The position numbers and the translations under genes are program-made. Of a stretch of 47,888 nt of DNA, positions 10,146-44,435 are shown in pieces. Location: IMG/VR virus record IMGVR_UViG_2718218397_000005. One strand, given 5' to 3'. Origin of the DNA: a virus (Duplodnaviria; Heunggongvirae; Uroviricota; Caudoviricetes). The notes beneath the pieces were generated by a model that did not search any database, was not told the origin of the DNA, and was given only the letters and a program-made list of their open reading frames with translations. How positions within the stretch are numbered: position 1 is the first letter of the stretch; every line of letters starts with the position of its first letter.

Positions 10146-10150
10146 GGGAT

Positions 10151-11178: not shown

Positions 11179-13736
11179 CGTCCACCTCCGGAGAACAGGC
11201 CACCATCACGCATCTGTGTCTGAATTTCATCACGGGCACCCTTGCGGGCCATGTCATACACCGCCTTCAGAGCAGCCGGACCTATCTGCCCGTTCGTGCC
11301 GTCGTTGTTAATCACCACATGGTTATTCTGCTCAAACGTCCCGGACGCCTGCGACCGGCTGTCTGCCATGCTGCCCGGTGTACCGACATAACCGCCGGTG
11401 GCATAGCCGCGCATCAGCCGGTAAAGATTCCCCACGCCAATCCGGCTGGTTGCCTCCTTCGTGAAGACAAACTCACCACGGTGAACAATCCCCGCTGGCT
11501 CATATTTGCCGCCGGTTCCCGTAAATCCTCCGGTTGCAAAATGGAATTTCGCCGCAGCGGCCTGAATGGCTGTACCGCCTGACGCGGATGCGCCGCCACC
11601 AACAGCCCCGCCAATGGCGCTGCCGATACTCCCGACAATCCCCACCATTGCCTGCTTAAGCAGAATTTCTGTCATCATGGACAGCACGGAACGGGTGAAG
11701 CTGCGCCAGTTCTGCTCACTGCCGGTCAGCATCGCCGCCATATTCTGTGCAATACCATCAAAGGTCTGCGTGGCTGCACTTTTTACCTGCGACATACTGT
11801 CCGTGGCGCTCTCTTCCCACTCACTCCAGCCGGACTTCAGGCCTGCCATCCAGTTCCCGCGAAGCTGGTCTTCAGCCGCCCAGGTCTTTTTCTGCTCTGA
11901 CATGACGTTATTCAGCGCCAGCGGATTATCGCCATACTGTTCCTTCAGGCGCTGTTCCGTGGCTTCCCGTTCTGCCTGCCGGTCAGTCAGCCCCCGGCTT
12001 TTCGCATCAATGGCGGCCCGTTTTGCCCGTTGCTGCTGTGCGAATTTATCCGCCTGCTGCGCCAGCGCGTTCAGGCGCTCCTGATACGTAACCTTGTCGC
12101 CAAGTGCAGCCAGCTGGCGTTTGTACTCCAGCGTCTCATCTTTATGCGCCAGCAGGGATTTCTCCTGTGCAGACAGCTGGCGACGTTGCGCCGCCTCCTC
12201 CAGTACCGCGAACTGACTCTCCGCCTTCCACAAATCCCGGCGCTGCTGGCTGATTTTCTCATTTGCTCCGGCATGCTTCTCCAGCGTCCGGAGTTCTGCC
12301 TGAAGCGTCAGCAGGGCAGCATGAGCACTGTCTTCCTGACGATCGCCCGCAGACACCTTCACGCCGGACTGTTTCGGCTTTTTCAGCGTCGCTTCATAAT
12401 CCTTTTTCGCCGCCGCCATCAGCGTGTTGTAATCCGCCTGCAGGATTTTCCCGTCTTTCAGTGCCTTGTTCAGTTCTTCCTGACGGGCGGTATATTTCTC
12501 CAGCGGCGTCTGCAGCCGTTCGTAAGCCTTCTGCGCCTCTTCGGTATATTTCAGCCGTGACGCTTCGGTATCGCTCTGCTGCTGCGCATTTTTGTCCTGT
12601 TGAGTCTGCTGCTCAGCCTTCTTTCGGGCGGCTTCAAGCGCAAGACGGGCCTTTTCACGATCATCCCAGTAACGCGCCCGCGCTTCATCGTTAACAAAAT
12701 AATCATCCTTGCGCAGATTCCAGATGTCGTCTGCTTTCTTAAACGCAGCCTCTGCCTTAATCAGCATCTCCTGCGCGGTATCAGGACGACCAATATCCAG
12801 CACCGCATCCCACATGGATTTGAATGCCCGCGCAGTCCTGTCTGCCCAGGTCTCCAGCGTGCCCATGTTCTCTTTCAGGCGGCGGGTCTGGTCATCAAAC
12901 CCTTTCGTTGCGGCCTCGTTCGCCGCCTGCAATGCCCCGGCTTCATCGCCGGAACGCTGCAACTGAGCAACATACGCAATCTGCTCCGTCGTCACGTTAT
13001 GGAACTGGCGTGCCATCGCCGTCAGCCCCGACGTCGGGTCTGTGGTCAGCTTCCCGAAGGCTTCAGCGACCTTGTCCACCTCCACGCCGGATGCAGAGGA
13101 GAAACGCGCCACACTCTGGCTGATGGACGCAATCTGAGCCTCACCGCTTACCCCCGCCTTAACCAGTGCGCTGAGTGACTCGCTGGTCTGGTTAAACGTC
13201 AGCCCTGCCGCCTGCCCGGCTCTGGACAGGACCAGCATACGATCTGCCGTCAGTCCCGCCTGATTGCCGGAAAGGACCAGCGTTTTGTTGAAATCGGACA
13301 GGGTTGAGTTGCCCTGATACCAGGCATACGCCAGCGCACCGGTCGCCACCGCCAGCGAGGTGGCCCCCACCATCGGCAGGGTGATCGCACCGGCAAGCCC
13401 CCTGAACATGGGGATCATCCCGCCGAAGGAGTCCTTCACCTGCCCCCCCTGTTGCAGCAGGATCAGCCACGGACTTTGCCCGCCTGCAAGCTGCGTGGCC
13501 ACGTCGGTGAACTGTGCAGGCAGCATACGCATGGCGGCTTTATACTGCCCGACGGAAATCCCCGCTTTCTGTGCAGCCAGCGCCTGTCGGCTCAGCGACT
13601 GTTCAACGACTGCCGCTGTTTTTTTCGCATCACTTTCCGTACCGGAAAAATGACGCCTGACTCTGGCCATCTGCTCGTCAAATCTGGCCGCATCCAGACT
13701 CAAATCAACGACCAGATCGCCTACCGGTTCAGCCAT
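11175..13736 (-). CDS. H: Tail tape measure protein H
   Basis: 853-aa ORF, coiled-coil-rich, Gly-rich C-terminal segment; lambda gpH-like (MAEPVGDLVVDLSLDAARFDEQ...). Confidence 0.9.
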   Translation of the reverse strand: MAEPVGDLVVDLSLDAARFDEQMARVRRHFSGTESDAKKTAAVVEQSLSRQALAAQKAGISVGQYKAAMRMLPAQFTDVATQLAGGQSPWLILLQQGGQVKDSFGGMIPMFRGLAGAITLPMVGATSLAVATGALAYAWYQGNSTLSDFNKTLVLSGNQAGLTADRMLVLSRAGQAAGLTFNQTSESLSALVKAGVSGEAQIASISQSVARFSSASGVEVDKVAEAFGKLTTDPTSGLTAMARQFHNVTTEQIAYVAQLQRSGDEAGALQAANEAATKGFDDQTRRLKENMGTLETWADRTARAFKSMWDAVLDIGRPDTAQEMLIKAEAAFKKADDIWNLRKDDYFVNDEARARYWDDREKARLALEAARKKAEQQTQQDKNAQQQSDTEASRLKYTEEAQKAYERLQTPLEKYTARQEELNKALKDGKILQADYNTLMAAAKKDYEATLKKPKQSGVKVSAGDRQEDSAHAALLTLQAELRTLEKHAGANEKISQQRRDLWKAESQFAVLEEAAQRRQLSAQEKSLLAHKDETLEYKRQLAALGDKVTYQERLNALAQQADKFAQQQRAKRAAIDAKSRGLTDRQAEREATEQRLKEQYGDNPLALNNVMSEQKKTWAAEDQLRGNWMAGLKSGWSEWEESATDSMSQVKSAATQTFDGIAQNMAAMLTGSEQNWRSFTRSVLSMMTEILLKQAMVGIVGSIGSAIGGAVGGGASASGGTAIQAAAAKFHFATGGFTGTGGKYEPAGIVHRGEFVFTKEATSRIGVGNLYRLMRGYATGGYVGTPGSMADSRSQASGTFEQNNHVVINNDGTNGQIGPAALKAVYDMARKGARDEIQTQMRDGGLFSGGGR

Positions 13737-14169
13737 ACCGGACTCCTCCTGCGATCCCTTCTGATACTGTCATCAGCATTACGTCATCCTCCGTCATGTC
13801 CGCCACATCCGGGGAAGCGGGGATAACTTCATTCCCGTCCGGGCCAAAGCGGACACCTCCGGCAAGCCCTGCCGCTTTCTGCATCAGCACATCATCTTCA
13901 GGCTCTTCGTCAGCCTCGCGCCGGTTCAGCAGACTGAAATCCAGCGGATGCATATCCGGATCGCTGAAAAACAGGCTGAGCACGGTGTACGTCAGCCCGG
14001 AAAAGTGCATATCCAGCAGAACATCATGAAAATAATGGGTACTGTAAAAGCGGTGCCAGTCGGCATACTCCGTGGATGACATCCCGGCAAGCATGGCACG
14101 CCAGTCGGGTCGCCCCATCTCACGCGCCAGTTTCAGGGCAAAACTCAGCTCACCGTCGAACACTTTCCC
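13729..14169 (-). CDS. T: T segment of the G-T tail assembly chaperone, expressed by -1 programmed frameshift from G
   Basis: ORF 13729-14163 in the -1 frame has no independent ATG (begins GTG) and overlaps the 3' end of G; lambda gpT-like sequence (FDGELSFALKLAREMGRPDWRAMLAGMSS...). Confidence 0.8.
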   Translation of the reverse strand, partial: GKVFDGELSFALKLAREMGRPDWRAMLAGMSSTEYADWHRFYSTHYFHDVLLDMHFSGLTYTVLSLFFSDPDMHPLDFSLLNRREADEEPEDDVLMQKAAGLAGGVRFGPDGNEVIPASPDVADMTEDDVMLMTVSEGIAGGVRYG

Positions 14170-14567
14170 GCAGAAACAGGCTCTGCGGGCCCGGCGTCCT
14201 CTGTCTGTTCAGGGGCATTATTCACCACAAACTCATACATACCAGACAGCCGGTACACCACGTTTTCAGCATGAGAAATTGCCTCCGTGGGCCAGGTGGT
14301 AAGCACTTCCTGCTCAATCTGTTTAACGGCTTCATTCATGGACGGCATCTGCGTCTTCTGCGGATGGTTATGCCACAGGGACATCGCCACCAGAAACGCG
14401 CCGGTTCTGATGGCGTCTTCCACAGTAAACTTCCGGTTGCTGTCTGACTCCGCCTGTTCTGCCTGCCGTTTCATCAGGGCGAGATGCTCAATGCGCTGCA
14501 GGGCTGACAGTTCAGAAAGCGTGACGGTCACACCGTTATGTTCAAATGATTCGGTTTTCAGGAACAT
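14145..14567 (-). CDS. G: Tail assembly chaperone G
   Basis: 140-aa ORF (MFLKTESFEHNGVTVTLSELSALQRIEHL...) ending ..AGKCSTVS; contains the slippery heptamer 6 codons before its stop. Confidence 0.9.
   Translation of the reverse strand: MFLKTESFEHNGVTVTLSELSALQRIEHLALMKRQAEQAESDSNRKFTVEDAIRTGAFLVAMSLWHNHPQKTQMPSMNEAVKQIEQEVLTTWPTEAISHAENVVYRLSGMYEFVVNNAPEQTEDAGPAEPVSAGKCSTVS
14163..14169 (-). promoter_or_regulatory. Programmed -1 ribosomal frameshift slippery site G GGA AAG (G to G-T)
   Basis: Minus-strand GGGAAAG (plus-strand CTTTCCC at 14163-14169) placed in the G frame as GCG GGA AAG, exactly where the T frame opens. Confidence 0.8.
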
Positions 14568-14582
14568 CGCTGACTCTCCGGA

Positions 14583-15323
14583 TTAACTGGCGGTGACGGT
14601 AATTTCTGCAACCGCAGCAAACTCACCATTACCGGATACAACCGGAATGTTGACCTTGCCTGCAGCAACGCCGTTCACGGTGATGGTCATACCACTGACC
14701 GACACGGTGGCTTTTGTTTTATCCGCAGACACCGCACGAAAGCTCTTGTCGGTTACGCCCTCCGGCTGGAAGGCCACGGTCAGCGTGGTGCTCTGCCCTT
14801 TCACCACCGAGGTGCTGGCAGGCGTCACGGTCATGCCGGTTGCCGCTGTTACCGTGCTGCGATCTTCTGCCATCGACGGACGTCCCACATTGGTGACTTT
14901 CACCGTGCGGGTGATCACTTCCTTCGCCGTCACCGCCTTACCGATACTGCTGACCCAGCCACGGAACACATCGACCGTGCCGTTCGGGAAGCGGATTTTA
15001 TAGGCACGGGTATCGCCTTCATTAAACCACGCCAGCAGCGCCTGCTGCCCCTGCTCTCCGGGCATCCACGCCAGCGTGAAGCTGGTATCTCCGGCAGATT
15101 TCTGCCCCTGCCCGGTCGCAGTCCAGTCTGCATCTTCATCATCGAGATAGCTGTCGTCATAGGACTCAGCGGTCAGTTCGCCGGGCGTCAGGTCTTTAAC
15201 TTTTGCCAGACGCGACCAGTCAACGTCTGAAAGCGGATTCGCATAAGGGTCACCGCTCCCCTTATAAACCCACAGGGTGGTCCCGGCACCTTTCACCGGC
15301 ATTGTAGGATTTGGTACAGGCAT
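14583..15323 (-). CDS. V: Major tail tube protein V (with C-terminal Ig-like domain)
   Basis: ORF 14583-15353; likely start at Met11 ([27 protein letters not shown]...) giving 246 aa, lambda gpV-like. Confidence 0.9.
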
Positions 15324-15330
15324 AGCGTCC

Positions 15331-15726
15331 TCACATTTCATAGGTAATGACATAAGTCAGATCGGCTGAACTCCACAGGCCCGCATCATCGTCGCGCCGG
15401 TAGTCATAGCCGCTGGCCACCATACTGGTGATCAAATCTGACAGTGCCGGGATATCGCTCATCACCGGATAAATCCGGGACTCCATCCACGCATCCAGCT
15501 CTGAATCCGGCACCTGAGCAGGCAGGAAAACTTCGATATGCAGCTCCGCCTGCCAGGTATCGCTGTCCAGCTCTTCGCCCGTGTATTCAGCGCCGGTGAG
15601 ATAAACGGCAACTGCCGGAAAATCCGCCTCATCAAAAACAGCGGGGCGACCATCAAAAAACGTCGCCCCGGTGTCATGCTTCTCCAGTGCATCCAGTACG
15701 GCTGCACGGAGTTCAGTATGTTTCAT
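15331..15726 (-). CDS. U: Tail terminator protein U
   Basis: 131-aa ORF ([31 protein letters not shown]...), lambda gpU-like. Confidence 0.9.
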
Positions 15727-16301
15727 CGCTTTATTACCATCCTCAGTTGATGCTGCAGCGCATAGCCCAGCTCTTTCGGAAGACGTTCACGCCGTATCCG
15801 CTCAATATTTTGTTTAAACGCCGTGGTCAGCGGCACCGCCATCGGGATTTTCACCACATCAATGGGGTAACGGTTTTTCCCGGCCACACGCTGCATGACA
15901 TGCCACCGGCCATTTTTCAGTTGCTGAATAAACGCGCCGGGAATACGACGGTTACCCACCACAAGCACGCTGCCGCCACCTTTCAGGGATGAACGCTGCC
16001 CCTTTTTACGACGCCTGCGGCGCGAAAGGACAACCCGCGCATTACCCAGCTTGATTACGGGCAAATCCCCCCGGTTAACTTTGATTCTGGCCTGCGGATT
16101 TTTGACCGTGGCCCTTTTCAGCCTGGCCCTTTCCTTTACCAGTTTCCGGCGTACCTTTGTCTCACGGGCAACCTGTGACGCCGACTGCGATATCGCGGAT
16201 GAAGCAACGCGGTTAATGGCCATTGCGGCGGCACCAGGCACCGCCGTTTTGCTGATACGGCTGAGGTTTTCAACGGCCTGCTCAAGACCTTTTATGGCCA
16301 T
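15723..16301 (-). CDS. Z: Tail completion protein Z
   Basis: 192-aa ORF (MAIKGLEQAVENLSRISKTAVPGAAAMAINR...), lambda gpZ-like. Confidence 0.9.
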   Translation of the reverse strand: MAIKGLEQAVENLSRISKTAVPGAAAMAINRVASSAISQSASQVARETKVRRKLVKERARLKRATVKNPQARIKVNRGDLPVIKLGNARVVLSRRRRRKKGQRSSLKGGGSVLVVGNRRIPGAFIQQLKNGRWHVMQRVAGKNRYPIDVVKIPMAVPLTTAFKQNIERIRRERLPKELGYALQHQLRMVIKR

Positions 16302-16312
16302 ACATCCCCCTT

Positions 16313-16666
16313 TCAGCGGCGACGGTTAACGGCAGGCGGTACGCCCCGTCCAAGCCAGAGATGACAACTTCCGCCATCATCCGGCGAAACCCGATCTACC
16401 CAGAAATTTTCCTCACCGATGGTCAGCGTGTCTCCACGCCGCAGCTGCCGCACCTCATCAGTCCGGACAAACAGGGACGGGCTGGAGCCTTCAACGCGCA
16501 CGCCCTGTCCGGCATAGCTGATATTTTCAGGGTCATCAAAAACACCACGTATCACCGCACCTGACTGCTCACCGGATGTAATGGTGGCTGACGTTCCCAT
16601 GTACCCGCGTATCGTTTCATCGGCGCGGGCAATGGCAGCATCGAACAGGTTATCGAAATCAGCCAC
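16313..16666 (-). CDS. FII: Head-tail joining protein FII
   Basis: 117-aa ORF (MADFDNLFDAAIARADETIRGYMGTSATI...), lambda gpFII-like. Confidence 0.9.
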   Translation of the reverse strand: MADFDNLFDAAIARADETIRGYMGTSATITSGEQSGAVIRGVFDDPENISYAGQGVRVEGSSPSLFVRTDEVRQLRRGDTLTIGEENFWVDRVSPDDGGSCHLWLGRGVPPAVNRRR

Positions 16667-16677
16667 AGCGCCTCCCG

Positions 16678-17076
16678 TTATTGCATTCTGGCCAGGCCGC
16701 GCTCTGTCATTTCGGCTGCCACACCGGCAGAGACACGAAACGCCGTTCCCGGCAGCACAAATGCCACAGGTTCATCCCGCGTGGCGTGAAGTGCATCAGT
16801 ATGCAGCTTCACCAGTGCCACGACCGTGACCAGTTCAGACGTATCCAGAATCACGGTATCCGGCTGCGCTGATCCCACCTCATTTTCATGTCCGGTCAGC
16901 ACATTTTCCCGGCTGAGAGGGGTGTCCTGACCGGCAGTTTCATCCGTGTCATCAAGCTCCTCTTCCAGCTCTGCCACACGGAGCGCCAGTTCTTCTTTCG
17001 TCCCCGTCAGGCTGACATCACGGTTCAGTTGTTCACCCAGCGAGCGGAGACGGGCAATCAGTTCATCTTTCGTCAT
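16678..17076 (-). CDS. FI: DNA packaging protein FI
   Basis: ORF 16678-17115; probable start at MTKDELIARLRSLGEQLNRD... (132 aa), lambda gpFI-like. Confidence 0.85.
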   Translation of the reverse strand: MTKDELIARLRSLGEQLNRDVSLTGTKEELALRVAELEEELDDTDETAGQDTPLSRENVLTGHENEVGSAQPDTVILDTSELVTVVALVKLHTDALHATRDEPVAFVLPGTAFRVSAGVAAEMTERGLARMQ

Positions 17077-17117
17077 GGACTCCTCCACAGAGAAACAATG
17101 GCCCCGAAGGGCCATGA

Positions 17118-18143
17118 TTACGCCAGTTGTACGGACACGAACTCATCAGGGTCAGCCAGCAGCATCAGCGGTGCTGACTGAATCATGGTGAACTCACGCG
17201 CCGGATCGCCGGTGGTCACCCAGTTTTTCGGGTAACGGGCAGAGGCGTTAATGCCTTCGCGCTGTGCGTCCGCATCCTGAATGCAGCCATAGGTGCGCAG
17301 ACCGCGTGCCTGAGTGTTCCCCAGCACCATCGTGTTGTCCGGCAGGAAGTTCTTTTTGACGCCGTTTTCCACGTACTGTCCGGAATACACGACGATGGCC
17401 ACATCGCCATACATCCCCTTATAGGACACCGCTTTACCCAGGTCTTTCACCGCTGTCTCCAGCTCGGAATTAGAGCCACGACGGGTATCCAGCTTCTCCT
17501 TGACGGCTTTGAAGGAACGGAACAGCGCCCAGCCTTTCGGATCGAACACGATGATATTCACCACACCGCTGGCGTTCAGCGCGTAGGCTTCGATATCGTC
17601 GGTCGGGTCATACGTGGACTTGTCACGCTTGCTCCACTCCGTGCCGCCGGACTGCGTGATGTTATTCTCCTCACTGCGGCCCATATCCACCTCAACCGGA
17701 TCGAAGGCTTCACCGGTCATGGTGTATTTGCCCTTAAGCACGGCAGAAACTGCCTGCATCTCTTCGACCTGAGCAATAGCCAGCTCTTCGTCACGCATGT
17801 TCTGCATGATGATGCGACGGCGGCGGTAAGCCGGGTCCGCCAGATTCTGCGGATCTTCATCCGGCAGGCGACGCAGGGTCATCTGCGGATTCACTTCATG
17901 CTTCGGCTTGACATATCCCGGCGTAAATTCAGAGGTGGAGCCGCCACGGGAACGGATAACCTCACCGGAAACAATCGGCGAAACGTACAGCGCCATGTTT
18001 ACCAGTCCCGGAATTTGTGAGAGATAGACTTTCTCCGTGGTGAAGGGATAGCTCTCACGGAAAAAGAGACGCAGAAACAGCGGATCAAACTTAAATTTCT
18101 GCTCATTTGCCGCCAGCAGTTGGGCGGTTGTGTACATCGACAT
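17118..18143 (-). CDS. E: Major capsid protein E
   Basis: ORF 17118-18170; probable start MSMYTTAQLLAANEQKFKFDPLFLRLFFRE... (341 aa), lambda gpE-like. Confidence 0.9.
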   Translation of the reverse strand: MSMYTTAQLLAANEQKFKFDPLFLRLFFRESYPFTTEKVYLSQIPGLVNMALYVSPIVSGEVIRSRGGSTSEFTPGYVKPKHEVNPQMTLRRLPDEDPQNLADPAYRRRRIIMQNMRDEELAIAQVEEMQAVSAVLKGKYTMTGEAFDPVEVDMGRSEENNITQSGGTEWSKRDKSTYDPTDDIEAYALNASGVVNIIVFDPKGWALFRSFKAVKEKLDTRRGSNSELETAVKDLGKAVSYKGMYGDVAIVVYSGQYVENGVKKNFLPDNTMVLGNTQARGLRTYGCIQDADAQREGINASARYPKNWVTTGDPAREFTMIQSAPLMLLADPDEFVSVQLA

Positions 18144-18198
18144 AAAAAAATCCCGTAAAAAAAGCCGCACAGGCGGCCTTTAGTGATGAAGGGTAAAG

Positions 18199-18530
18199 TT
18201 AAACGATGCTGATTGCCGTTCCGGCAAACGCGGTCCGTTTTTTCGTCTCGTCGCTGGCAGCCTCCGGCCAGAGCACATCCTCATAACGGAACGTGCCGGA
18301 CTTGTAGAACGTCAGCGTGGTGCTGGTCTGGTCAGCAGCAACCGCAAGAATGCCAACGGCAGCACCGTCGGTGGTGCCATCCCACGCAACCAGCTTACGG
18401 CTGGAGGTGTCCAGCATCAGCGGGGTCATTGCAGGCGCTTTCGCACTCAATCCGCCGGGCGCAGTTGCGGTATGAGCCGGGTCACTGTTGCCTGCGGCTG
18501 GTAATGGGTAAAGGTTTCTTTGCTCGTCAT
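18199..18530 (-). pseudogene. D: Capsid decoration protein D, interrupted by a 1-nt deletion frameshift
   Basis: ATG at 18530 with SD AAGGGA encodes [13 protein letters not shown] then shifts out of frame (stop at 18447-18449); remaining gpD sequence [27 protein letters not shown]...AISIV continues in the adjacent frame to the stop at 18199; span is 332 nt, not a multiple of 3. Confidence 0.75.
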
Positions 18531-18539
18531 AAACATCCC

Positions 18540-19839
18540 TTACACTGGTGTGTTCAGCAAATCGTTAACGGCATCAGATGCCGGGTTACCTGCAGCCAGC
18601 GGTGCCGGTGCCCCCTGCATCAGACGATCCAGCGCAGTGTCACTGCGCGCCTGTGCACTCTGTGGTGCTGCGGCCAGAATGCGGCGGGCCGTTTTCACGG
18701 TCATACCGGGGGTTTCTGCCAGCACGCGTGCCTGTTCTTCGCGTCCGTGAGCCTCCTCACAGTTGAGGATCCCCATAATGCGGCTGTTTTCTGCCGCAAC
18801 CGCTGCGGTGATCTGCGCGTTCACGTCCGGCTGCGCCGCGCTGGCGTTCTCGCCCTCCGTCGCTGGCACCACGTCAGTAACGTCAGCCTGCGAAGCAGTG
18901 GCTGAAACAGTTGTTGATTGAGTCTCTTTGGTCATTCGCCCTCCTGAGAGACGGGATTTACGTGCATCCAGTGCATCACGCATGACGGTGATCGCATCGG
19001 TGCTGTTAACAAGTTCATCAGCCAGTCCGGCATCAATGGCCTCCTGACCGCTGTACACTGCAGCCTCGGTATCCAGCACAGCCTGCACGGACAGGCCGGT
19101 ATATGCCGACACCTTCTGCGCAAACATCCGGCGGGTTGCGTCCATCCGGGACTGCAGTGTCTCCCGGACGTCATCCGGAAGATGGCTGTAGGGGTTGCCA
19201 TCCACCTTATGGCTGCCGCTGTAAATCAGCGTGATTTCCACACCCTGTTTCTCCAGCGCAGCACCGTAATTACTGTGAGCCATCATGACGCCGATGGAGC
19301 CTGTCCGGGCGGTCTGCGTGACCAGACGCCGGGAGGCGGCACTGGCAAGCAACTGACCTGCACTGCAGTTCATGTCGTTGGCAAGCGCCCATACCGGTTT
19401 TATGTCACGCACACGGGCGATGATGTCAGCGCAGTCAAATGCCCCCGCCACCATCCCGCCGGGCGTGTCCATATCGAGCAGAATGCCGTCCACCATCGGA
19501 TCGCTGGCAGCCTGTTGCAGACGGGCGATAATGCCGTTGTAACCGGTCATCCCCGAGTACGGCTGCAGCGCCCGCGTCCGGCTGACCAGCGTGCCGGACA
19601 CCGGCAGCACGGCGATGCCGTTCATGACCTGATAACTGCGGGCCTGTCGTGGTCCGTCATCATCACCGGATAATGCCAGCGTCGCGAGTGCCTCCTGGGC
19701 AGTCAGGCTGTCGCCGGACACCGCATCCGTCAGGCGGCTGATCCCAAGCTGGCCTGCAAGCGCACAAAAGAAAACCCGCGCATAGGCGGGTTCAAGCATC
19801 AGCGGCTCATTAAAGGCCATGCTGGCAATATGCGGGAGA

Positions 19840-19859
<20 letters not shown>
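18540..19859 (-). CDS. C: Prohead protease/scaffold C (S49 peptidase family; Nu3 scaffold is the in-frame C-terminal part)
   Basis: ORF 18540-19994; lambda gpC-like sequence begins at GTG (V)[20 protein letters not shown]... giving 439 aa; 20-nt overlap with B as in lambda. Confidence 0.85.
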
Positions 19860-23540
<3,681 letters not shown>

Positions 23541-23566
<26 letters not shown>

Positions 23567-24086
23567 TCAGCAACCCCGGTATCAGTTCATCCAGCGCGGC
23601 TGCTTTGTTCATGGCTTTGATGATATCCCGTTTCAGGAAATCAACATGTCGGTTTTCCAGTTCCGGAAAACGCCGCTGCACCGACAGGGGGAGCCCGTCG
23701 AGAATACTGGCAATTTCACCTGCGATCCGCGACAACACGAAAGTACAGAATGCGGTTTCCACCACTTCAGCGGAGTCTCTGGCATTCTTCAGTTCCTGTG
23801 CGTCGGCCTGCGCACGCGTAAGTCGATGGCGTTCGTACTCAATAGTTCCTGGCTGGAGATCTGCCTCGCTGGCCTGCCGCAGTTCTTCAACCTCCCGGCG
23901 CAGCTTTTCGTTCTCAATTTCAGCATCCCTTTCGGCATACCATTTTATGACGGCGGCAGAGTCATAAAGCACCTCATTACCCTTGCCACCGCCTCGCAGA
24001 ACGGGCATTCCCTGTTCCTGCCAGTTCTGAATGGTACGGATACTCGCACCGAAAATGTCAGCCAGCTGCTTTTTGTTGACTTCCAT
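23541..24086 (-). CDS. nu1: Terminase small subunit Nu1
   Basis: 181-aa ORF with N-terminal winged HTH (MEVNKKQLADIFGASIRTIQNWQEQGMPV...), lambda Nu1-like. Confidence 0.9.
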
Positions 24087-24263
24087 TGTTCATTCCACGG
24101 CCAAAAACAGAGAAAGGAAACGACAAAGGCCCAAAAGTTCGTTTTCAGCACCTGTCGTTTCCTTTCTTTTCAGGGGGTATTTTAAATAAAAACATTAAGT
24201 TACGACGAAGAAGAACGGAAACGCCTTAAACCGGAAAATTTTCATAAATAGCGAAAACCCGCG

Positions 24264-25028: not shown

Positions 25029-25322
25029 ATGAAAAAAATGTTGTTTTCTGCCGCTCTGGCAATGCTTATTACAGGATGTGCTCAACAGACGTTTACTGTT
25101 GGAAACAAACCGACAGCAGTAACACCAAAGGAAACCATCACCCATCACTTCTTCGTTTCGGGAATTGGACAGGAGAAAACTGTTGATGCAGCCAAAATTT
25201 GTGGCGGCGCAGAAAATGTTGTTAAAACAGAAACCCAGCAAACATTCGTAAATGGATTGCTCGGTTTTATTACTTTAGGCATTTATACTCCGCTGGAAGC
25301 GCGTGTGTATTGCTCACAATAA
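25029..25322 (+). CDS. bor: Bor lipoprotein (serum-resistance-associated)
   Basis: ORF 24981-25322; probable start MKKMLFSAALAMLITGCAQQTFTV... (lipobox LITGC), 97 aa, lambda Bor-like; opposite strand to lysis genes. Confidence 0.85.
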   Translation: MKKMLFSAALAMLITGCAQQTFTVGNKPTAVTPKETITHHFFVSGIGQEKTVDAAKICGGAENVVKTETQQTFVNGLLGFITLGIYTPLEARVYCSQ

Positions 25323-25353: not shown

Positions 25354-25827
25354 CTATCTGCACTGCTCATTAATATACGTCTGGGTTCCTTCCAGTTGTT
25401 TTTGCATAGTGATCAGCCTCTCTCTGAGGGTGAAATAATCCCGTTCAGCGGTGTCTGCCAGTCGGGGGGAGGCTGCATTATCCACGCCGGAGGCGGTGGT
25501 GGCTTCACGCACTGACTGACAGACTGCTTTGATGTGCAACCGACGACGACCAGCGGCAACATCATCACGCAGAGCATCATTTTCAGCTTTCGCATCAGCT
25601 AACTCCTTCGTGTATTTTGCATCGAGCGCAGCAACATCACGCTGACGCATCTGCATGTCAGTAATTGCCGCGTTCGCCAGCTTCAGTTCTCTGGCATTTT
25701 TGTCGCGCTGGGCTTTGTAGGTAATGGCGTTATCACGGTAATGATTAACAGCCCATGACAGGCAGACGATGATGCAGATAACCAGAGCGGAGATAATCGC
25801 GGTTACTCTGTTCATTGCTGACCCCAC
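25354..25827 (-). CDS. Rz: Spanin inner-membrane subunit Rz (i-spanin)
   Basis: 157-aa ORF with N-terminal TM segment ([20 protein letters not shown]) and coiled coil; lambda Rz-like. Confidence 0.85.
25413..25595 (-). CDS. Rz1: Spanin outer-membrane lipoprotein Rz1 (o-spanin), embedded in Rz in +1 frame
   Basis: 60-aa [27 protein letters not shown]...PPPPPAW... with lipobox and Pro-rich segment, fully nested in Rz. Confidence 0.8.
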
Positions 25828-26309
25828 AAACAGATTTCACGCTCAATCTCACGACGAGTCATGAGACCTTTCCATTGCTTACCGCCAGCATATGTCCAGC
25901 GACGTAGCTGATCACATGCGCCTTTGATATCGCCCTGGTTTATTTTGCGAAGAAGCGTCGATGTTCTGAAATTGCCAGCACCCACGTTGTAAACGAATGA
26001 GTAAAGAGCGCCGCGCGTTGTTTCCGGTATATCGACTTCGATGTACGGGTTAATTTGTCTGGCGACAGTGGCAAGGTCTTTATTCAAGAGTGCTTTGCAT
26101 TCTGCTTTGGTATACGTTTTACCGAGCATGATGTCTTTTCCTGTATGCCCGTGACATACAGTCCATACACCAACAATATCTTTGTATGGTATGTAGCTGA
26201 CACCTTCCAGACCATCGTTACCACTTGGGCCAGTGATTAACACTGATGCTATAGCAATTGCTCCGCCACCAATAGCAGCAGCAACGGCTTTTCGTAATGA
26301 TGGAGGCAT
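25812..26309 (-). CDS. R: SAR endolysin (phage 21 R-type lysozyme, T4-lysozyme-like fold)
   Basis: 165-aa ORF; N-terminal signal-anchor-release segment ([23 protein letters not shown]) then lysozyme domain (..[16 protein letters not shown]..); not the lambda R transglycosylase. Confidence 0.85.
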
Positions 26310-26524
26310 TATTCACCTCTCGCAGCCTTGCGCTTATCTTCTTTAATCTTGAAATAAAGGTTTGTCAGGTACGTCAGCAGGCCAAATACCAGGCTACCCA
26401 GCACACCTATTGCTGCCCACTGTGAGGGCGTGACTTTATCGAGCAGCTGTAAAAACCAGTAACCGGCACTACCTGCTGAGGTGCCATAGGCGACACCCGT
26501 TGTTAACTTATCCATGGATTTCAT
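26309..26524 (-). CDS. S: Pinholin S (phage 21 type) with dual-start motif
   Basis: ORF 26309-26569; probable start [30 protein letters not shown]... (71 aa) with Met1/Met4 dual start and two TM segments. Confidence 0.8.
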
Positions 26525-26651
26525 AACCCCACCTCGCAGACAAAGCGGGTGTAAATTGAGGGAATACAACGTATCGCAAAAAAGCAGAAACGTAACAGAC
26601 TCGGAGTCAGTGAATAACTCAGGTATTGGGTTATCAGCTAATATCGAGACT

Positions 26652-26682
26652 CAAAAAATGGAAAAACCCGCTCGACGGCGGG
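26652..26682 (-). terminator. Rho-independent terminator upstream of the lysis cassette (candidate tR'-like site)
   Basis: Stem CCCGC (26667-26671) / GCGGG (26678-26682); minus-strand transcript continues into TTTTTCCATTTTTTG. Confidence 0.55.
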
Positions 26683-27112
26683 TTTAAGCTGTGTGACGAA
26701 GTAACCACTCTTAACAGCATAACCAATTTTTTACGTACGTAAACCACTAAATGATATTTGCGAGAATGCTACCGAGTATTGAAAACACCACTACAAATAC
26801 ATAAGCAAATCTCAACAAATAACCAACAAATAATTTCCAGCGTTATTTTTAGCCGATTTAAATTGAACCTTCAAATTATAGAGCGCTTATAAATAACAGC
26901 CATTAATATAAATTGGCTAATAGATTTATTTTTATTCAGCCAAGAGCCATGAATAGGATTCGATAGAAAAAGTTCAGATAAAAATAGAGATCTACTTCAC
27001 AAATCAAATGAGAAACCAAAACTTACATCTTGAAATAATCACATTGATTAGATGAATATTTATCGCGCAGTGACATCATTTTTTAATAATAGTTCAAAAA
27101 AAAGGGCTCACG

Positions 27113-28195
27113 ATGAAAAAATTAACAGTGGCAATTTCTGCTGTAGCTGCATCAGTACTGATGGCGATGTCTGCTCAGGCAGCTGAAATTTATAATAAAG
27201 ACAGTAACAAGCTGGATCTGTACGGGAAAGTTAATGCTAAGCACTACTTCTCCTCTAATGATGCAGATGATGGTGATACTACTTATGCCCGTCTTGGCTT
27301 CAAAGGTGAAACCCAAATCAACGATCAACTGACTGGTTTCGGTCAGTGGGAATATGAATTCAAAGGCAACCGCGCTGAATCTCAAGGTTCCTCCAAAGAT
27401 AAAACCCGTCTTGCCTTCGCTGGCCTGAAATTCGGTGACTACGGCTCCATCGATTATGGCCGTAACTACGGTGTAGCATACGATATTGGTGCATGGACCG
27501 ACGTTCTGCCAGAATTCGGTGGCGATACCTGGACCCAAACAGATGTATTCATGACTGGTCGCACCACAGGTGTTGCAACTTATCGTAACAATGACTTCTT
27601 TGGTCTGGTTGATGGTCTGAACTTTGCTGCTCAGTATCAGGGTAAAAATGACCGTACTGACGTAACTCAAGCTAATGGTGATGGTTTCGGTTTCTCCACT
27701 ACTTATGAGTATGAAGGTTTCGGCGTAGGTGCAACCTATGCTAAATCTGACCGCACTAATAATCAGGTTATCTACGGTAACAACGGTCTGAATGCTTCTG
27801 GTCAAAATGCTGAAGTATGGGCAGCTGGTCTGAAATATGATGCGAACAACATCTATCTGGCCACCACCTATTCTGAAACCCAGAACATGACTGTTTTTGG
27901 TAATAACCATATTGCCAACAAAGCACAAAACTTCGAAGCTGTTGCACAATATCAGTTCGACTTCGGCCTGCGTCCATCCGTTGCTTACCTGCATTCTAAA
28001 GGAAAAGACTTGGGTGTTTGGGGTGATCAGGACCTGGTTGAATATGTTGATGTAGGTGCAACCTATTACTTCAACAAAAATATGTCCACTTTTGTTGACT
28101 ACAAAATCAACCTGATTGATAAGAGCGATTTCACGAAAGCATCTGGCGTTGCTACCGATGATATCGTTGCTGTAGGTATGGTTTACCAGTTCTAA
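27113..28195 (+). CDS. nmpC: Outer membrane porin, OmpC/OmpF family (phage-borne Lc/NmpC type)
   Basis: 360-aa ORF with signal peptide ([23 protein letters not shown]), porin motifs, C-terminal ..VAVGMVYQF; sits between Q and S on the opposite strand as in DLP12/PA-2. Confidence 0.85.
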
Positions 28196-28219
28196 TTTGA
28201 TTACTAAAAGATATGTTGT

Positions 28220-28236
28220 GGGAGGCTTTGCCTCCC
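28220..28236 (+). terminator. Stem-loop immediately downstream of the porin gene
   Basis: GGGAGGC TTT GCCTCCC, extended imperfectly to 28214-28242; no clear U-tract so factor-independence is uncertain. Confidence 0.4.
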
Positions 28237-28383
28237 CAACATATAAGTGGCTCCCTCAAGCCACTTCCTTTAGAAGCACAACCTTGCTTCTAACTATACA
28301 AACCTTCTGTTATATATTACCCTTTATTTTTGGGGGCGTTTCAACGCCCCATTTTTAATAACTTTTAGTAAATAATTGGCGTA

Positions 28384-28767
28384 TTAATTAGAGTTATTAA
28401 CAACGATATCCATCTCTAACCGGATATCTAATGCCATTAACATCCCTTCAATTATGCCCTCAGCCTTTTGTAACCTTTTCCCGATATAACCATCAGAGCA
28501 GCAATGCTTACCTGCCAGTGACATGAATGTCATACCGACTACATAATAATCTACTAATAAATCGTGCAAATCGCTGTTGTTCTTTTTCAGACGGGCCATG
28601 CACCCGCAAATGATCATCGCGTCATCGTCACAACATTGCGGGCGAGATTTTACTTTTGAAGGAATTAATCCCTTAAAACCGGCGGCAATGGACGACCAGG
28701 TCACATCTTCATGATTATTAGCCGCCCACGCTCCCCAACGCTCAAGAACCATCTGAATATCACGCAT
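28384..28767 (-). CDS. Q: Late-gene antiterminator Q (phage 21/DLP12 QuuD type)
   Basis: ORF 28384-28782; probable start [24 protein letters not shown]...; Cys-rich zinc-binding region ([16 protein letters not shown]...HCC). Confidence 0.8.
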
Positions 28768-28849
28768 CAACTTACTCCACAAAAATCAGACCAGAACGCC
28801 AATTACAAGCAAAAATCAATAAAACAGTATTAGTTGATTGTTATCTCTG

Positions 28850-29743: not shown

Positions 29744-31048
<1,305 letters not shown>

Positions 31049-31063
31049 CCACTACAGTAGCCA

Positions 31064-34711: not shown

Positions 34712-34742
34712 CATATTTTAGTCGTTTAGAAACAAATTATTT

Positions 34743-35075
34743 TTAATGTGGTGTGCTTCGTGACAATAAATTAATAACCAACACACCGGCACAAATCAAC
34801 ATCATGCCTATAATGGCTGGCAGGTCCAGCCGTTGGCCGAAAAGTCCCCATGACAGTAAGCTAATCAGGACAATACCGACTCCTGACCAGATAGCATAAG
34901 CAATCCCTGTAGGAATATAAGCCAGCGTCTGAGCTAATAACCAGAATGATGCACAATAACAAATAATTGTACCAACAGATGGCCATAACCGTGTAAAACC
35001 TTCTGAAAACTTCATTAAGGTTGTACCAATGACCTCTGCAAGTATTGCACCACCAAGATAAATATAAGGGTTCAT
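34743..35075 (-). CDS. emrE: Small multidrug resistance (SMR) efflux transporter EmrE
   Basis: ORF 34743-35129; probable start MNPYIYLGGAILAEVIGTTLMKFSEGFTRLWPS... (110 aa), four TM helices, conserved Glu14. Confidence 0.9.
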   Translation of the reverse strand: MNPYIYLGGAILAEVIGTTLMKFSEGFTRLWPSVGTIICYCASFWLLAQTLAYIPTGIAYAIWSGVGIVLISLLSWGLFGQRLDLPAIIGMMLICAGVLVINLLSRSTPH

Positions 35076-35142
35076 AGAATATTCTTTCCTGTTCAAACTG
35101 GAGAGAATTGTACTACAGTTTGAACTCAACTCACCTGTTTCA

Positions 35143-38836: not shown

Positions 38837-39298
38837 ATGAGAATACTAGGTGTTAGGGCGGCGCCCAAAGTTACATCTTTTGTTGTATATTGCACTGATG
38901 AGTCTGCACTCAAATGTGTTGATGTTATTAAAATACCTTCGACCTTAGACACACCAGAAAAATTAAAGTATGTGCGAAATAACATCCTCGACATTCTTAA
39001 TTTATATAATGTTGAATTAGCTGCTATACGCGTTACTGAATCAAACTCTGATAATCTTAGCATTGACCGCCTTTATATAGAAGCTGTTATTCAAGAAGCA
39101 TTTTCAAGCAGTGATGTAAGAAGATATTACACCATTAGAAAATCTGGTATGAAGTCATCATTGAACCTAACAGAGATCGAGTATAAAGAAATATTGAAGT
39201 CACACCGTAATATAAATGGAATCGATAATTCTGGTTTTACAACTGAAACAAATGAAGCTGTTTTGGCTGCACTATCTGCGGAGGTAAGGGGATGCTGA
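38837..39298 (+). CDS. Hypothetical protein, first gene of a cI-linked cassette (rexA position)
   Basis: 153-aa ORF MRILGVRAAPKVTSFVVYCTDESALKCVDVIKIPSTLDT...; AT-rich; 7-nt overlap with the kinase gene. Confidence 0.55.
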   Translation: MRILGVRAAPKVTSFVVYCTDESALKCVDVIKIPSTLDTPEKLKYVRNNILDILNLYNVELAAIRVTESNSDNLSIDRLYIEAVIQEAFSSSDVRRYYTIRKSGMKSSLNLTEIEYKEILKSHRNINGIDNSGFTTETNEAVLAALSAEVRGC

Positions 39299-40338
39299 CT
39301 CCATACAAAAGAGCTGATGTAGCATTCGAATGGATTCGTGATCTAGAAGAACAGGGTTGTTTTTCAAAAGTATATCTGGCTCATGACAGACACCTAGCTC
39401 ATGACTTGGTGATTAAAGAAATAGAAAAAAAAGAAAACATTAACCACGACGACTACTTTAATGAAGCAAGGCTTCTCTATAAACATGCACATCCAAATAT
39501 TGTGCAAGTTCAGTATGCTGCTCAATGTGAGAGCAATATCTATATAGCCATGCCATTTTATCATAATGGTTCGCTAAACCAATTAATAAAAAAGATTAAT
39601 CTTACGAGCAGGGAGATAATACGGTATTCTATTCAATTTTTAAGTGGGCTTTATCATATACACTCAAAAGGTCTTATGCATTTTGATATAAAACCTAATA
39701 ACATCATGATATCAAACAGAAATGAGGCCATGCTATCTGACTTTGGATTGTCTCAGTTAGTCAATGAGGAATCGAGAGCTGCGCCTGAGTTTGGATATCA
39801 TTTTCATGTGCCACCGGAATATTTTTCTTTATCAACAAATGATTATAATTTCACATATGACATATATCAGGCAGGATTAACCATATATAGAATGTGTGTT
39901 GGATATGATAATTTTGAAAGAGAAAGATCTGCATTTAGAACGATTGAACAACTCAGAGAGTCGATAATTAATGGCTCCTATCCATTAAAAGAGTATCCTT
40001 CCCACATACATAAAAAATTGATAACAATAGTAAACAAATGCATTCATGTAGATCCAAATGAAAGATATCAATCCGTACTAGACGTACTAAACGATCTCTC
40101 AGCTATAAGTGATGGCGTTCTTGACTGGCGTCTACAGATGACAAAACCAACTAACGGCACATATGAATGGCAAAAAAAGTCTGGGGACGTTATACTGTCT
40201 ATAGTTTTTGACGCAGAAAATTCGTCTACTACTGGTTTTCGTTTATACGATGGTGGGCGGAAAAGGCGTGCTACGAACTTAACAATATCCTCAGGATGTA
40301 CCCCTACAAAACTGTATAGGTTATTAAAGGATAACTGA
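39292..40338 (+). CDS. stk: Eukaryotic-like (Hanks-type) protein kinase
   Basis: 348-aa ORF with beta3 Lys (LVIKEI), catalytic loop HFDIKPNN, DFG motif (LSDFGLS) and PPEYF activation-segment motif. Confidence 0.8.
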   Translation: MLTPYKRADVAFEWIRDLEEQGCFSKVYLAHDRHLAHDLVIKEIEKKENINHDDYFNEARLLYKHAHPNIVQVQYAAQCESNIYIAMPFYHNGSLNQLIKKINLTSREIIRYSIQFLSGLYHIHSKGLMHFDIKPNNIMISNRNEAMLSDFGLSQLVNEESRAAPEFGYHFHVPPEYFSLSTNDYNFTYDIYQAGLTIYRMCVGYDNFERERSAFRTIEQLRESIINGSYPLKEYPSHIHKKLITIVNKCIHVDPNERYQSVLDVLNDLSAISDGVLDWRLQMTKPTNGTYEWQKKSGDVILSIVFDAENSSTTGFRLYDGGRKRRATNLTISSGCTPTKLYRLLKDN

Positions 40339-40340
40339 TC

Positions 40341-40505
40341 ATGAAAAAGTGCGAGGAAGTAAGTAAGCTGCCTCGCAGACGTGATGCAGCATTAGCGGTT
40401 CCCTACAAAAAAGATGAGTTCATAAGCTCTTCTGATGACAAAAAATTTTCAAAGGCAAAAAATTTTGCATCTACATCTCTAAAAGATAAATACTTTAAGA
40501 TCTAG
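40341..40505 (+). CDS. Small Lys-rich ORF immediately after the kinase (speculative)
   Basis: Manually translated 54-aa ORF MKKCEEVSKLPRRRDAALAVPYKKDEFISSSDDKKFSKAKNFASTSLKDKYFKI; ATG 2 nt after kinase stop, AAGGA 9 nt upstream; stop abuts the terminator. Confidence 0.35.
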   Translation: MKKCEEVSKLPRRRDAALAVPYKKDEFISSSDDKKFSKAKNFASTSLKDKYFKI

Positions 40506-40532
40506 CCCGGCCACCGTGCCGGGTTTTCTTTT
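40506..40532 (+). terminator. Rho-independent terminator ending the cI-kinase operon
   Basis: Stem CCCGGC (40506-40511) / GCCGGG (40518-40523), 6-nt loop, then TTTTCTTTT. Confidence 0.7.
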
Positions 40533-40654
40533 GTCCCCTCCCCTCATCACACAAACCGTTCGAAAAACCACCACAACCTCCCTTCAGTTATCGCTATGCG
40601 ATGCAAGTCACAAAATTAATTCTTTTTGCTATCAAACAGTTAATATCAAAACAC

Positions 40655-40710
40655 ATCAATCAATAGCAATAAGTATTGATACCACCAATAGCAATAGCTA
40701 TTATCACCAT
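40655..40710 (+). promoter_or_regulatory. Putative OL operators and pL promoter
   Basis: Dyad ATCAATAgcaataagTATTGAT (40659-40680) and palindrome AATAGCTATT (40693-40702) share CAATAGCAA with OR; -35 TTGATA (40676-40681), 17-bp spacer, -10 TATTAT (40699-40704). Confidence 0.5.
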
Positions 40711-40777
40711 GTCGCAACAACACAACGATACGGCAACCGCCTGATTCACCGTTGCGATGACCGCTTAGATCCGCAGC

Positions 40778-41188
40778 TTGAATTTCGGCAGGCTCCGGGG
40801 AGTGCGAGGGGTGAAACGGACGCGTGAACGTCGGTGTGACCAGCTGAAATCAACTCAACACCTCATACCTCAGTCGCTTCAACGAGGCGGCTTAGTTATG
40901 ACAACCGGCGGCCATCCACCGCCTGAATACGCGCAGAAGTCTCTATATGTTCAGCAGCCCAGCTTACGGGCAGGAGTTTTTATGGTTCATCAACATTATG
41001 GAACGCAGACCGTTAATCGAGGTGCGGTCATGCCAGGAATGCTGGTCAAACACAAAGATGGTACCTGGACTGCATCAGCTAATTTACGCGGACGGCTTTA
41101 TCTGCATCGCGGCATCGAGCGCACTTATACCCGTGATTTGCTCGTGGAAGTTTTTCTCGACGGACGCGGCAACGGCCTGAATCACTAA
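40778..41188 (+). CDS. Hypothetical protein, first ORF downstream of putative pL (N-like antiterminator candidate)
   Basis: 136-aa ORF; Arg-rich N-terminal segment [12 protein letters not shown] reminiscent of N-family RNA-binding motifs; alternative start Met41 (40898) has a GAGG SD; assignment tentative. Confidence 0.35.
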
Positions 41189-43028: not shown

Positions 43029-43183
43029 CGCATCCTCACGATAATATCCGGGTAGGCGCGATCACTTTCGTCTACTCCGTTACAAAGCGAGGCTGGGTAT
43101 TTCCCGGGCTTTCTGTTATCCGAAATCCGCTGAAAGCCCAGCGGCTGGCTGAGGAGATAAATAATAAACGGGAGGCGGTATGA
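43025..43183 (+). CDS. Small hypothetical protein (lambda small-orf-like)
   Basis: Manually translated 52-aa [55 protein letters not shown]; ATG overlaps exo stop, stop overlaps next gene start. Confidence 0.4.
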
Positions 43184-44424: not shown

Positions 44425-44435
44425 TACTAAGTTAT

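Follow-up and report, generated by a model that had tools for sequence, protein, structure and literature searches.

Gene content of the late-control and lysis region

The window analysed here is a stretch of DNA of 47,888 nucleotides (IMG/VR record IMGVR_UViG_2718218397_000005), and it is classified as a complete DLP12-like lambdoid prophage. In the matching genome (strain JNE082640, 99.97% identical, 1-bp offset) intD lies at the window end, beside tRNA-Arg. The 3.5-kb block studied here represents the module for late control and lysis in DLP12/qsr'-type E. coli prophages, with an intact NmpC-type porin gene. Its features, listed with two further outer-membrane genes of the prophage, are as follows.

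28384-28767, minus strand: late antiterminator Q of the QuuD type, 127 aa (Pfam PF06530 match)
28196-28356, plus strand: porin 3'UTR, an ipeX-like structured RNA with four stem-loops, ending in an intrinsic terminator
27113-28195, plus strand: intact general porin of the NmpC/Lc type, 360 aa (PF00267), convergent with Q and divergent from S
26914-27112, plus strand: inferred porin promoter region (K-12 deletion data; conservation)
26716-26743, minus strand: candidate late promoter pR' (homology to the annotated 933W pR'; conservation)
26701-26713, minus strand: conserved initial transcribed block TAAGAGTGGTTAC, near-identical in the window, 933W and the Stx2a phage WGPS2
26654-26685, minus strand: tR', an intrinsic terminator (hairpin followed by TTCCATTTTT) homologous to the annotated 933W tR' (6645-6670)
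26309-26524, minus strand: S, a pinholin/antiholin of the S21 type (class II holin), 71 aa (PF04971 'Bacteriophage P21 holin S', E 2e-35)
25812-26309, minus strand: R, a SAR endolysin of the R21/RrrD type, GH24 (PF00959; PDB 4zpu, 3hde)
25354-25815, minus strand: Rz i-spanin (PF03245, E 5e-54; 97.4% identical to phage 21)
25413-25595, minus strand: Rz1 o-spanin, embedded in Rz (PF06085, E 3e-20; 100% identical to phage 21)
25029-25322, plus strand: bor/iss outer-membrane lipoprotein (PF06291, E 6e-31), antisense to the late transcript
4605-5204, minus strand: lom, an Ail/Lom outer-membrane protein (PF06316, E 2e-123, full length; RefSeq annotation), downstream of J

The S protein begins with MKSMDK, which gives S71 from Met1 (26524) and S68 from Met4 (26515), and the annotations of phages 21 and 434B list dual-start products of this kind. 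It is identical to the DLP12 copy at all 71 residues and to phage 21 S at 61 of them (86%), and it would form small membrane-depolarising holes without itself releasing the endolysin. R is identical at 163 of 165 positions both to RrrD (4zpu) and to phage 21 R (98.8%), and it matches PDB 3hde with E 9.6e-111. Besides the lysozyme domain it possesses a Gly/Ala-rich N-terminal signal-anchor-release segment (residues 8-27), and the catalytic residues Glu35, Asp44 and Thr50 could be read from the sequence. Bor is identical to phage 21 Bor at 96 of 97 positions (99%), and its gene carries the annotation iss in the matching genome. The prophage retains a full lambda-type head and tail gene set, and positions 5200-24200 are 98–99% identical to the morphogenesis genes of lambda/434. 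A sequence-only reading of this DNA had proposed a pinholin with a Met1/Met4 dual start, a SAR lysozyme system of the phage 21 type, a complete 360-aa OmpC-family porin antisense between Q and S, the presence of lom, bor and the porin in one prophage, and the joining of the late region to lambda-type packaging and morphogenesis genes; all of these were borne out. Many isolated lambdoid phages have the junction that it called mosaic as their standard layout.

The antiterminator Q and the porin cassette

The start of Q is placed at the QuuD-like ATG at 28767, and the end at 28782 reported earlier corresponds to an upstream TTG. Membership of PF06530 was decided by the curated cut-off of 26 bits, and Q matches the profile with 181 bits over model positions 1-118 of 118. 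Q is identical to the DLP12-derived Q of phage 434B (QuuD) at 126 of 127 positions, to H-19B Q at 105/127 and to 933W Q at 101/127 (80–83% over residues 1-120 for these two Stx phages), whereas identity to phage 21 Q falls to 39/127 (31%, global alignment). Residues 8-87 match the solved Q21 chains 6jnx and 6p18 (E 7.6e-8). Of the earlier assignment to a '21/DLP12 type', the DLP12 part stands, and the phage 21 part stands at the level of the family: Q is best regarded as the DLP12/H-19B/933W allele within the same Pfam family, and its identification as the phage 21 allele was rejected at 31% identity. The Q21/Q933W family (PF06530) and its Q regulatory cassette have been described (10.1101/651190). 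In the window a 933W-like pR'-terminator cassette of this family precedes the late genes, 1.69 kb downstream of Q and beyond the porin. The subsites of the phage 21 QBE (ATTGAGCA and AATGAGCA, between -35 and -10) were not found in the corresponding spacer, which reads TACGTAAAAAATTGGT.

The porin contains the complete 16-strand domain of PF00267 (507 bits, model positions 1-337 of 337), and residues 24-360 align to solved chains of OmpC, OmpK36, OmpK37 and PhoE with E ~1e-135. It has a signal peptide cleavage site between AQA and AE, a PEFGGD motif and a C-terminal VYQF. The comparison with the DLP12 nmpC region that the sequence-only reading had proposed gives the same gene order and a porin gene that is here undisrupted and without IS5; its product is identical to the reconstructed K-12 NmpC at 330 of 365 aligned positions (90%), with the differences in clustered patches. 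The protein is assigned on sequence to the NmpC/Lc/OmpD group of general bacterial porins (PF00267), and the labels OmpC (PGAP) and OmpD (phage records) were set aside in favour of the NmpC type.

The promoter of this gene is expected in the 199 bp upstream of it. In K-12, PnmpC is active, and it loses its activity when the segment -199 to -1 in front of nmpC is deleted (PMC11677980). Among six phages, the 170 bp closest to the porin start hardly vary. A CRP-like site at 26986-27001 with 2 mismatches was given no weight, as 19 such sites occur in the window against 23 expected by chance. In NCM3722, a strain with intact nmpC, NmpC amounts to ~2% of the proteome (PMC8144880). Downstream, four consecutive stem-loops (z -5.8 and -6.1 against shuffles) lie between the porin stop codon and a terminator formed by a hairpin at 28333-28350 and a T run on the plus strand, which is the location given for ipeX in reviews. 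This 3'UTR is 97% identical to that of the DLP12 copy from K-12 present in 434B; a search for ipeX in Rfam, which holds no ipeX model, gave no match. The ipeX-like RNA had not figured in the sequence-only reading. We infer that the porin and ipeX are expressed in this strain.

Probable location of the late promoter and its terminator

Two segments of the window match the late-control region of Stx phages in blastn. Positions 28769-28435 match the genes for Q in 933W and H-19B, and positions 26744-26662 on the minus strand match the 933W pR' (6587-6612, annotated as 'promoter, homologous to pR'') together with tR' (6645-6670; Y10775.2). The two matches are separated by 1.69 kb in the window and by 88 bp in 933W. 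The pR'-tR' element is 77–78% identical to that of 933W/H-19B, with an identical core, and ~300 phage records, mostly of Stx phages, match the window only at this element of ~55–83 bp. In the annotated records examined (933W, H-19B and other Stx phages) the element is found at the end of Q or overlapping it. Nothing else in the window is homologous to a known pR'-tR' cassette, and here the element is placed downstream of the porin in the late direction, ~25 nt before the terminator hairpin.

The candidate pR' consists of a -35 hexamer TTTACG (26743-26738), a 16-nt spacer and a -10 hexamer TATGCT (26721-26716), and transcription is predicted to start near 26709-26712 on the minus strand. Both hexamers are weak, matching the consensus at 4/6 positions each, and a consensus promoter scan with a threshold of 9 hexamer matches did not call the site, which has 8 of 12. 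From 26743 to ~26630, six diverged phages that carry the porin show no variation except at one stem base, whereas the sequence directly upstream is variable. The block TAAGAGTGGTTAC is present once in the window, and 933W has a single difference from it (GATAAGAG against GTTAAGAG). A role as a pause or Q-loading region is proposed for this block on the model of the sigma-dependent pause element (SDPE) in pR'21. The tR' stem (26685-26664, minus strand) comprises 8 bp with 5 G-C pairs, is followed by TTCCATTTTT, and is present in the minimum-free-energy fold. An Rfam search of the leader gave no match except a sub-threshold one to Trp_leader (E 0.46), which reflects the terminator-like hairpin. 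The Q-S interval contains no tRNA genes, which sets it apart from phage 21 and 933W. In the Stx2a phage WGPS2, two reverse-oriented genes separate Q from the same pR' element.

The position of the pR'-tR' homologue at 26744-26662 and its invariance among diverged phages make it most likely that the late promoter sits between the porin gene and S. Published work on K-12 supports this placement: the DLP12 SRRz/Rz1 operon was cloned with a regulatory region of its own (-121 to +650) and reportedly responds to a Q-type antiterminator (PMC7918800), Genomic SELEX located binding of RpoS-containing RNA polymerase holoenzyme in the insH-essD spacer (PMC5493296), and the nmpC-essD spacer is listed as holding a 'promoter island' (PMC3661553). 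With pR' downstream of the porin, the terminator would be the tR' of a short late leader RNA of ~54 nt, and the porin cassette would lie upstream of the late transcription unit. That a terminator precedes the lysis genes and has to be read through had been recognised in the sequence-only reading, and it agrees with the stem and the TTCCATTTTT after it seen here. Its further claim, an obligatory antisense passage of Q-dependent late transcripts across the porin gene, is not supported: the pR'-tR' homologue lies downstream of the porin, and the Q-porin spacer holds no promoter-like site.

Comparison with known lambdoid phages

The closest known system is DLP12 (qsr') of E. coli K-12, which has the same order and orientations (quuD-nmpC-essD-rrrD-rzpD-borD). 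In the K-12 copy carried by 434B, R (163/165), Rz (146/153), Rz1 (59/60) and Bor (96/97) are nearly identical to the window proteins, and the DLP12 neighbours intD, emrE, ybcK, ybcN, ninE, ybcO, rusA and ylcG are also matched here. Several features differ. The full set of lambda-type head and tail genes kept by this prophage has been lost from K-12 DLP12; K-12 nmpC holds IS5 whereas the porin gene here does not; the tR'-S interval here is 17 bp longer than in the K-12 copy; and this prophage has an IS3-family element in ninE.

Phage 21 (OL657228.1) follows a common logic of pR', short leader, terminator and S, and its lysis genes are nearly the same. Its order is -35, -10, start site, pause element, terminator ending near +50, S, R and Rz, without a porin; its pR' and QBE sequences are unrelated to those of the window, and two tRNA genes follow tR'. 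In the Stx phages 933W/H-19B, the gene for a 144-aa Q extends at its 3' end into pR', while Q of the window has 127 aa. Their cargo (tRNAs, stx) lies downstream of tR' and is Q-dependent, whereas the porin here lies upstream of pR' and would be Q-independent. Phage PA-2 carries the lc porin of a lambdoid phage with an ipeX 3'UTR, which takes the place of host porins on lysogeny; this likeness is taken from literature description, namely reviews of ipeX and Blasband et al. 1986 as cited in PMC11677980. Work of Castillo-Keller et al. in 2006 is said to concern the same porin and ipeX.

A model of late transcription and its alternatives

We consider the region to be a standard Q cassette with a porin cargo insert, the porin lying outside the Q-dependent late transcript, and we give this reading a probability of roughly 85%. 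In this model the early rightward operon would lead to synthesis of Q. RNA polymerase would start at pR' (~26743-26716, minus strand) and be held in the conserved initial transcribed region, where Q would load; the exact start is a prediction, and the loading of Q at the pR' element is drawn by analogy. Q would then allow readthrough of tR' (26685-26654), where without Q a leader RNA of ~54 nt would end, and readthrough would supply S (pinholin S68 and antiholin S71), R (the SAR endolysin) and Rz/Rz1. Late transcription would next proceed to the lambda-type packaging and morphogenesis genes, and on this course it runs antisense through bor/iss and a ylcI-like gene. The lambda late transcript likewise runs antisense through bor. 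The porin cassette (its own promoter, the 360-aa NmpC-type porin, the ipeX-like 3'UTR and terminator) would be an independently transcribed insert flanked by the 3' end of Q and by pR', and this position places it outside the Q-dependent late transcript. A lysogen would express the cassette and gain a new porin, and ipeX would probably lower OmpC and OmpF. Early transcripts that pass Q, if antiterminated, may enter the porin antisense, so some antisense transcription of the porin may occur in lytic growth. The gene identities, and the homology, position and conservation of the pR'-tR' element, are direct observations.

The arrangement in the sequence-only reading, with a late promoter directly after Q and polymerase running antisense through the porin cassette and the terminator at 26654-26685 to reach S, would resemble the canonical cassette, in which pR' directly follows Q (in phage 21 it starts 7 bp past the Q stop codon), and a Q-modified polymerase could pass hairpins and 1.6 kb of antisense sequence. 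We nevertheless regard it as very unlikely. The Q-porin spacer of 188 bp (28196-28383) is filled by four stem-loops that form part of the porin 3'UTR and terminator; nothing in it resembles a pR', and it yielded no sigma-70-like site. Moreover, the homologue of the pR'-tR' with which 80%-identical Q proteins work is located beyond the porin, on its downstream side, and is strongly conserved. Still less probable, in our judgement, is that the pR'-like element is a relic and that the lysis genes are mainly under host promoters (sigma-E/sigma-S) in the porin-S spacer, serving biofilm or outer-membrane vesicle roles as reported for the defective DLP12. Control of the DLP12 lysis cassette by RpoE and Hha, with vesicle and biofilm effects, has been reported, but the same work also lists control by a Q-type antiterminator (PMC7918800). 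In K-12, the spacer between insH (IS5 in nmpC) and essD is bound by RpoS-containing RNA polymerase holoenzyme in Genomic SELEX (PMC5493296). The IS element upstream of Q may also weaken the phage programme in this prophage. Against such a relic stand the invariance of the pR' element in the viable isolated phages ev099, ev207, 4A7 and ev017, and in 434B (K-12 copy), and the complete lambda-type morphogenesis gene set that the prophage keeps. Host-promoter control and Q control of the lysis genes are not mutually exclusive.

Returning to the porin cassette as an insert outside the late transcript, its placement between Q and pR' could be regulatory design rather than a tolerated insertion, although we hold this to be unlikely. 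Conceivably, early transcripts that pass Q meet porin/ipeX transcription convergently on induction and switch the conversion genes off. It is likewise conceivable that the back-to-back porin promoter and pR' share inputs from carbon limitation/CRP, sigma-S and sigma-E, in which case nutrient state would be coupled to leaky expression of the lysis cassette. The reverse-oriented cargo at the same spot in WGPS2 hints that this slot has been used repeatedly.

Occurrence and implications

The 3.5-kb block is carried at a coverage of at least 80% by 2184 of 5426 complete E. coli genomes (~40%) and by 34 phage records. The arrangement is thus common among E. coli genomes, and the order Q-nmpC-S-R dates to work of the 1980s on qsr'/DLP12 and PA-2, so the module itself has little weight as a discovery. 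What changes is the annotation: the porin and its ipeX 3'UTR belong outside the Q-dependent late operon, unlike stx, and their expression is for this reason expected in the lysogen, independently of prophage induction. The IS3-family element, which lies within ninE upstream of Q, may reduce Q expression in this prophage. As an intact allele whose differences from K-12 NmpC are clustered in loops, the porin may also bear on variation in phage and colicin receptors.

Composition of the prophage and its late region

The window constitutes a complete lambdoid prophage. It matches E. coli JNE082640 (NZ_AP027206.1, about 4309116-4357004) at 99.97% identity, and in that genome the last window gene, intD, adjoins tRNA-Arg and fimZ. 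Its further genes include emrE, ybcK, ybcN, ninE, ybcO, rusA, ylcG and quuD, the porin, essD, rrrD, rzpD, iss/bor, ylcI and nohD, and after these come a full lambda-type head and tail gene set, lom and tail fibre genes. From this gene content and the full head and tail set, the prophage is therefore an undegraded relative of DLP12 (qsr'), the cryptic prophage of K-12. The junction of lambda-type morphogenesis genes to the lysis block, proposed from the sequence alone, holds (98-99% identity to lambda/434 over window 5200-24200), and the claimed pinholin (S), SAR endolysin (R), bor/iss and lom are all present, as are the spanins (Rz/Rz1). Compared with phage 21 (OL657228.1), identity is 86% for S, 98.8% for R, 97.4% for Rz, 100% for Rz1 and 99% for Bor.

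Features of the window discussed in the text
4605-5204, minus strand: lom, presence confirmed
25029-25322, plus strand: bor/iss, presence confirmed
25812-26309, minus strand: R, 163/165 identical to RrrD (4zpu) and phage 21 R
26309-26524, minus strand: S, N-terminus MKSMDK, PF04971 'P21 holin S' match
26685-26664, minus strand: terminator-like site from a terminator scan, a stem and then TTCCATTTTT
26721-26716, minus strand: candidate -10 of the late promoter pR', TATGCT, suggested by alignment, 16-nt spacer from the -35
26743-26738, minus strand: candidate pR' -35, TTTACG, suggested by alignment
27113-28195, plus strand: porin, 360 aa
28333-28350, plus strand: porin terminator hairpin
28384-28767, minus strand: late antiterminator gene Q, 127 aa, PF06530 match, 181 bits
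29835-30182 and 30302-31048, plus strand: transposase ORFs of an IS3-family element

The Q gene had been called 21/DLP12-type. Q21 and Q933W are grouped in one family, PF06530 (Yin et al., 10.1101/651190), yet the window Q is only 31% identical to phage 21 Q (OL657228.1), and therefore '21-type' is valid for the family and not for the allele. A phage 21 allele is excluded by this value. The window Q matches DLP12 Q (the copy in phage 434B) at 126/127 residues. H-19B Q (105/127) and 933W Q (101/127) are also similar, their likeness stopping near residue 120.

Position of the late promoter

When the spacer between the porin and S was used as query against phage records, about 300 of them, mostly Stx phages, matched only at query 372-454 (window 26744-26662, minus strand) or a shorter part of it. 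In 933W (Y10775.2) this match coincides with the annotated 'promoter, homologous to pR'' (6587-6612) and 'terminator, homologous to tR'' (6645-6670). Direct blastn likewise aligned window 28769-28435 with the Q coding sequence of 933W and H-19B, and window 26744-26662 with pR'-tR'; the two matches lie 1.69 kb apart in the window but 88 bp apart in 933W, where the pR' and tR' features overlap the end of Q. A block, TAAGAGTGGTTAC, lies 3' of the candidate -10 in the window, 933W and the Stx2a phage WGPS2 with one difference, in 933W; its core occurs once in the window, and the terminator hairpin comes next after it. Six diverged phages that carry the porin agree at every position from 26743 to about 26630 save one stem base; the 200 bp upstream vary. 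The candidate hexamers are weak, and a consensus promoter scan passed over them; in the spacer between Q and the porin (28196-28383) such a scan found no promoter-like site and blastn no similarity to any pR'.

Because of this homology and conservation, pR' most likely belongs in the porin-S spacer, and the terminator near 26652-26682 ahead of the lysis genes, correctly noticed in the sequence-only reading, would be tR', the terminator of the short late leader RNA. From the alignment, transcription would begin near 26709-26712, about 185 nt before S, and yield a leader of about 54 nt. Phage 21 shows this same arrangement of -35, Q-binding element, -10, start site, pause element and terminator ending at +50. 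With pR' there, the porin would precede the late transcription unit, and late transcripts would not have to cross it; the main mechanistic inference of the sequence-only reading, that Q-dependent transcripts must run antisense through the porin, is not supported. Late transcripts do cross bor/iss and a ylcI-like gene antisense, and early transcripts passing Q may enter the porin antisense.

In WGPS2 (AP012537.1, 3221-5280), two genes in reverse orientation separate Q, of 113 aa, from a pR'-tR' element 88% identical to that of the window. Since both carry reverse genes here, the slot between Q and pR' appears to have been used repeatedly for cargo, WGPS2 being the second case. A stretch of 17 bp between tR' and S (window 26570-26586, minus strand), present in the window and four other phages, is missing from the K-12-derived copy in 434B.

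The porin and its 3' untranslated region

The porin is intact, as had been claimed: it is full length by PF00267, aligns end to end with solved OmpC, OmpK36 and PhoE chains (E about 1e-135), and has a signal peptide, a PEFGGD motif and a C-terminal YQF. It shares 330/365 positions with reconstructed K-12 NmpC, and the 35 differences, two short indels included, cluster at residues about 182-190, 219-236, 268-272 and 340-353, a pattern expected of surface-exposed loops under diversifying selection. The 160 nt between its stop codon and terminator fold into four strong, consecutive stem-loops (z about -6), and the 3'UTR (28196-28356, plus strand) shares 97% identity with the K-12 DLP12 copy. On sequence and position it corresponds to ipeX, a 167-nt RNA of DLP12 whose described position matches and which is a published repressor of the host porins OmpC and OmpF. 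The original description of ipeX is reportedly that of Castillo-Keller et al. in 2006. This 3'UTR was absent from the sequence-only account.

In NCM3722, which has the intact allele type, NmpC makes up about 2% of the proteome and is a major porin when carbon is limiting (PMC8144880); in K-12, PnmpC is active (PMC11677980). At 26986-27001 (plus strand), about 112 bp ahead of the porin start codon, lies a CRP-like site with 2 mismatches. It would agree with the published up-regulation of NmpC under carbon limitation, but sites of this kind occur in the window no more often than expected by chance.

Prevalence of the module and other observations

The late-control and lysis module with its porin is already known, and its features are real. 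Of 5426 complete E. coli genomes, 2184 contain the 3.5-kb block at a coverage of at least 80%, as do 34 phage records, many of which also share lambda-type morphogenesis genes. Earlier literature covers nmpC within qsr' (Highton 1985) and lc and nmpC of lambdoid phages (Blasband 1986). The DLP12 lysis cassette is reported to be under Q, RpoE and Hha control (PMC7918800), and for the K-12 nmpC-essD spacer RNA polymerase binding (PMC5493296) and promoter-like signals (PMC3661553) have been reported.

An IS3-family element (IS911-like orfA/orfB, about 29800-31050) interrupts ninE, with the replication genes on one side and Q on the other, and runs counter to the early rightward operon. The element could have a polar effect on Q expression and may impair the prophage. 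An Rfam isrC match (29867-29989) falls within the element. The expected site of a lambdoid N gene, from the serine/threonine kinase gene to kil (about 40338-40982, plus strand), shows neither an annotated gene nor a clear N-like ORF. Rfam also gives a strong IS009 match (227 bits; 1039-1237, minus strand) at the tail-fibre-assembly end, close to a recombinase (invertase-like) gene. The annotation of JNE082640 shows extra cargo at about 34740-35080, 39290-40340 and 43180-44430, comprising the emrE efflux pump, a serine/threonine kinase beside the repressor, and a PAPS-reductase-family gene beside two methyltransferase-like genes.
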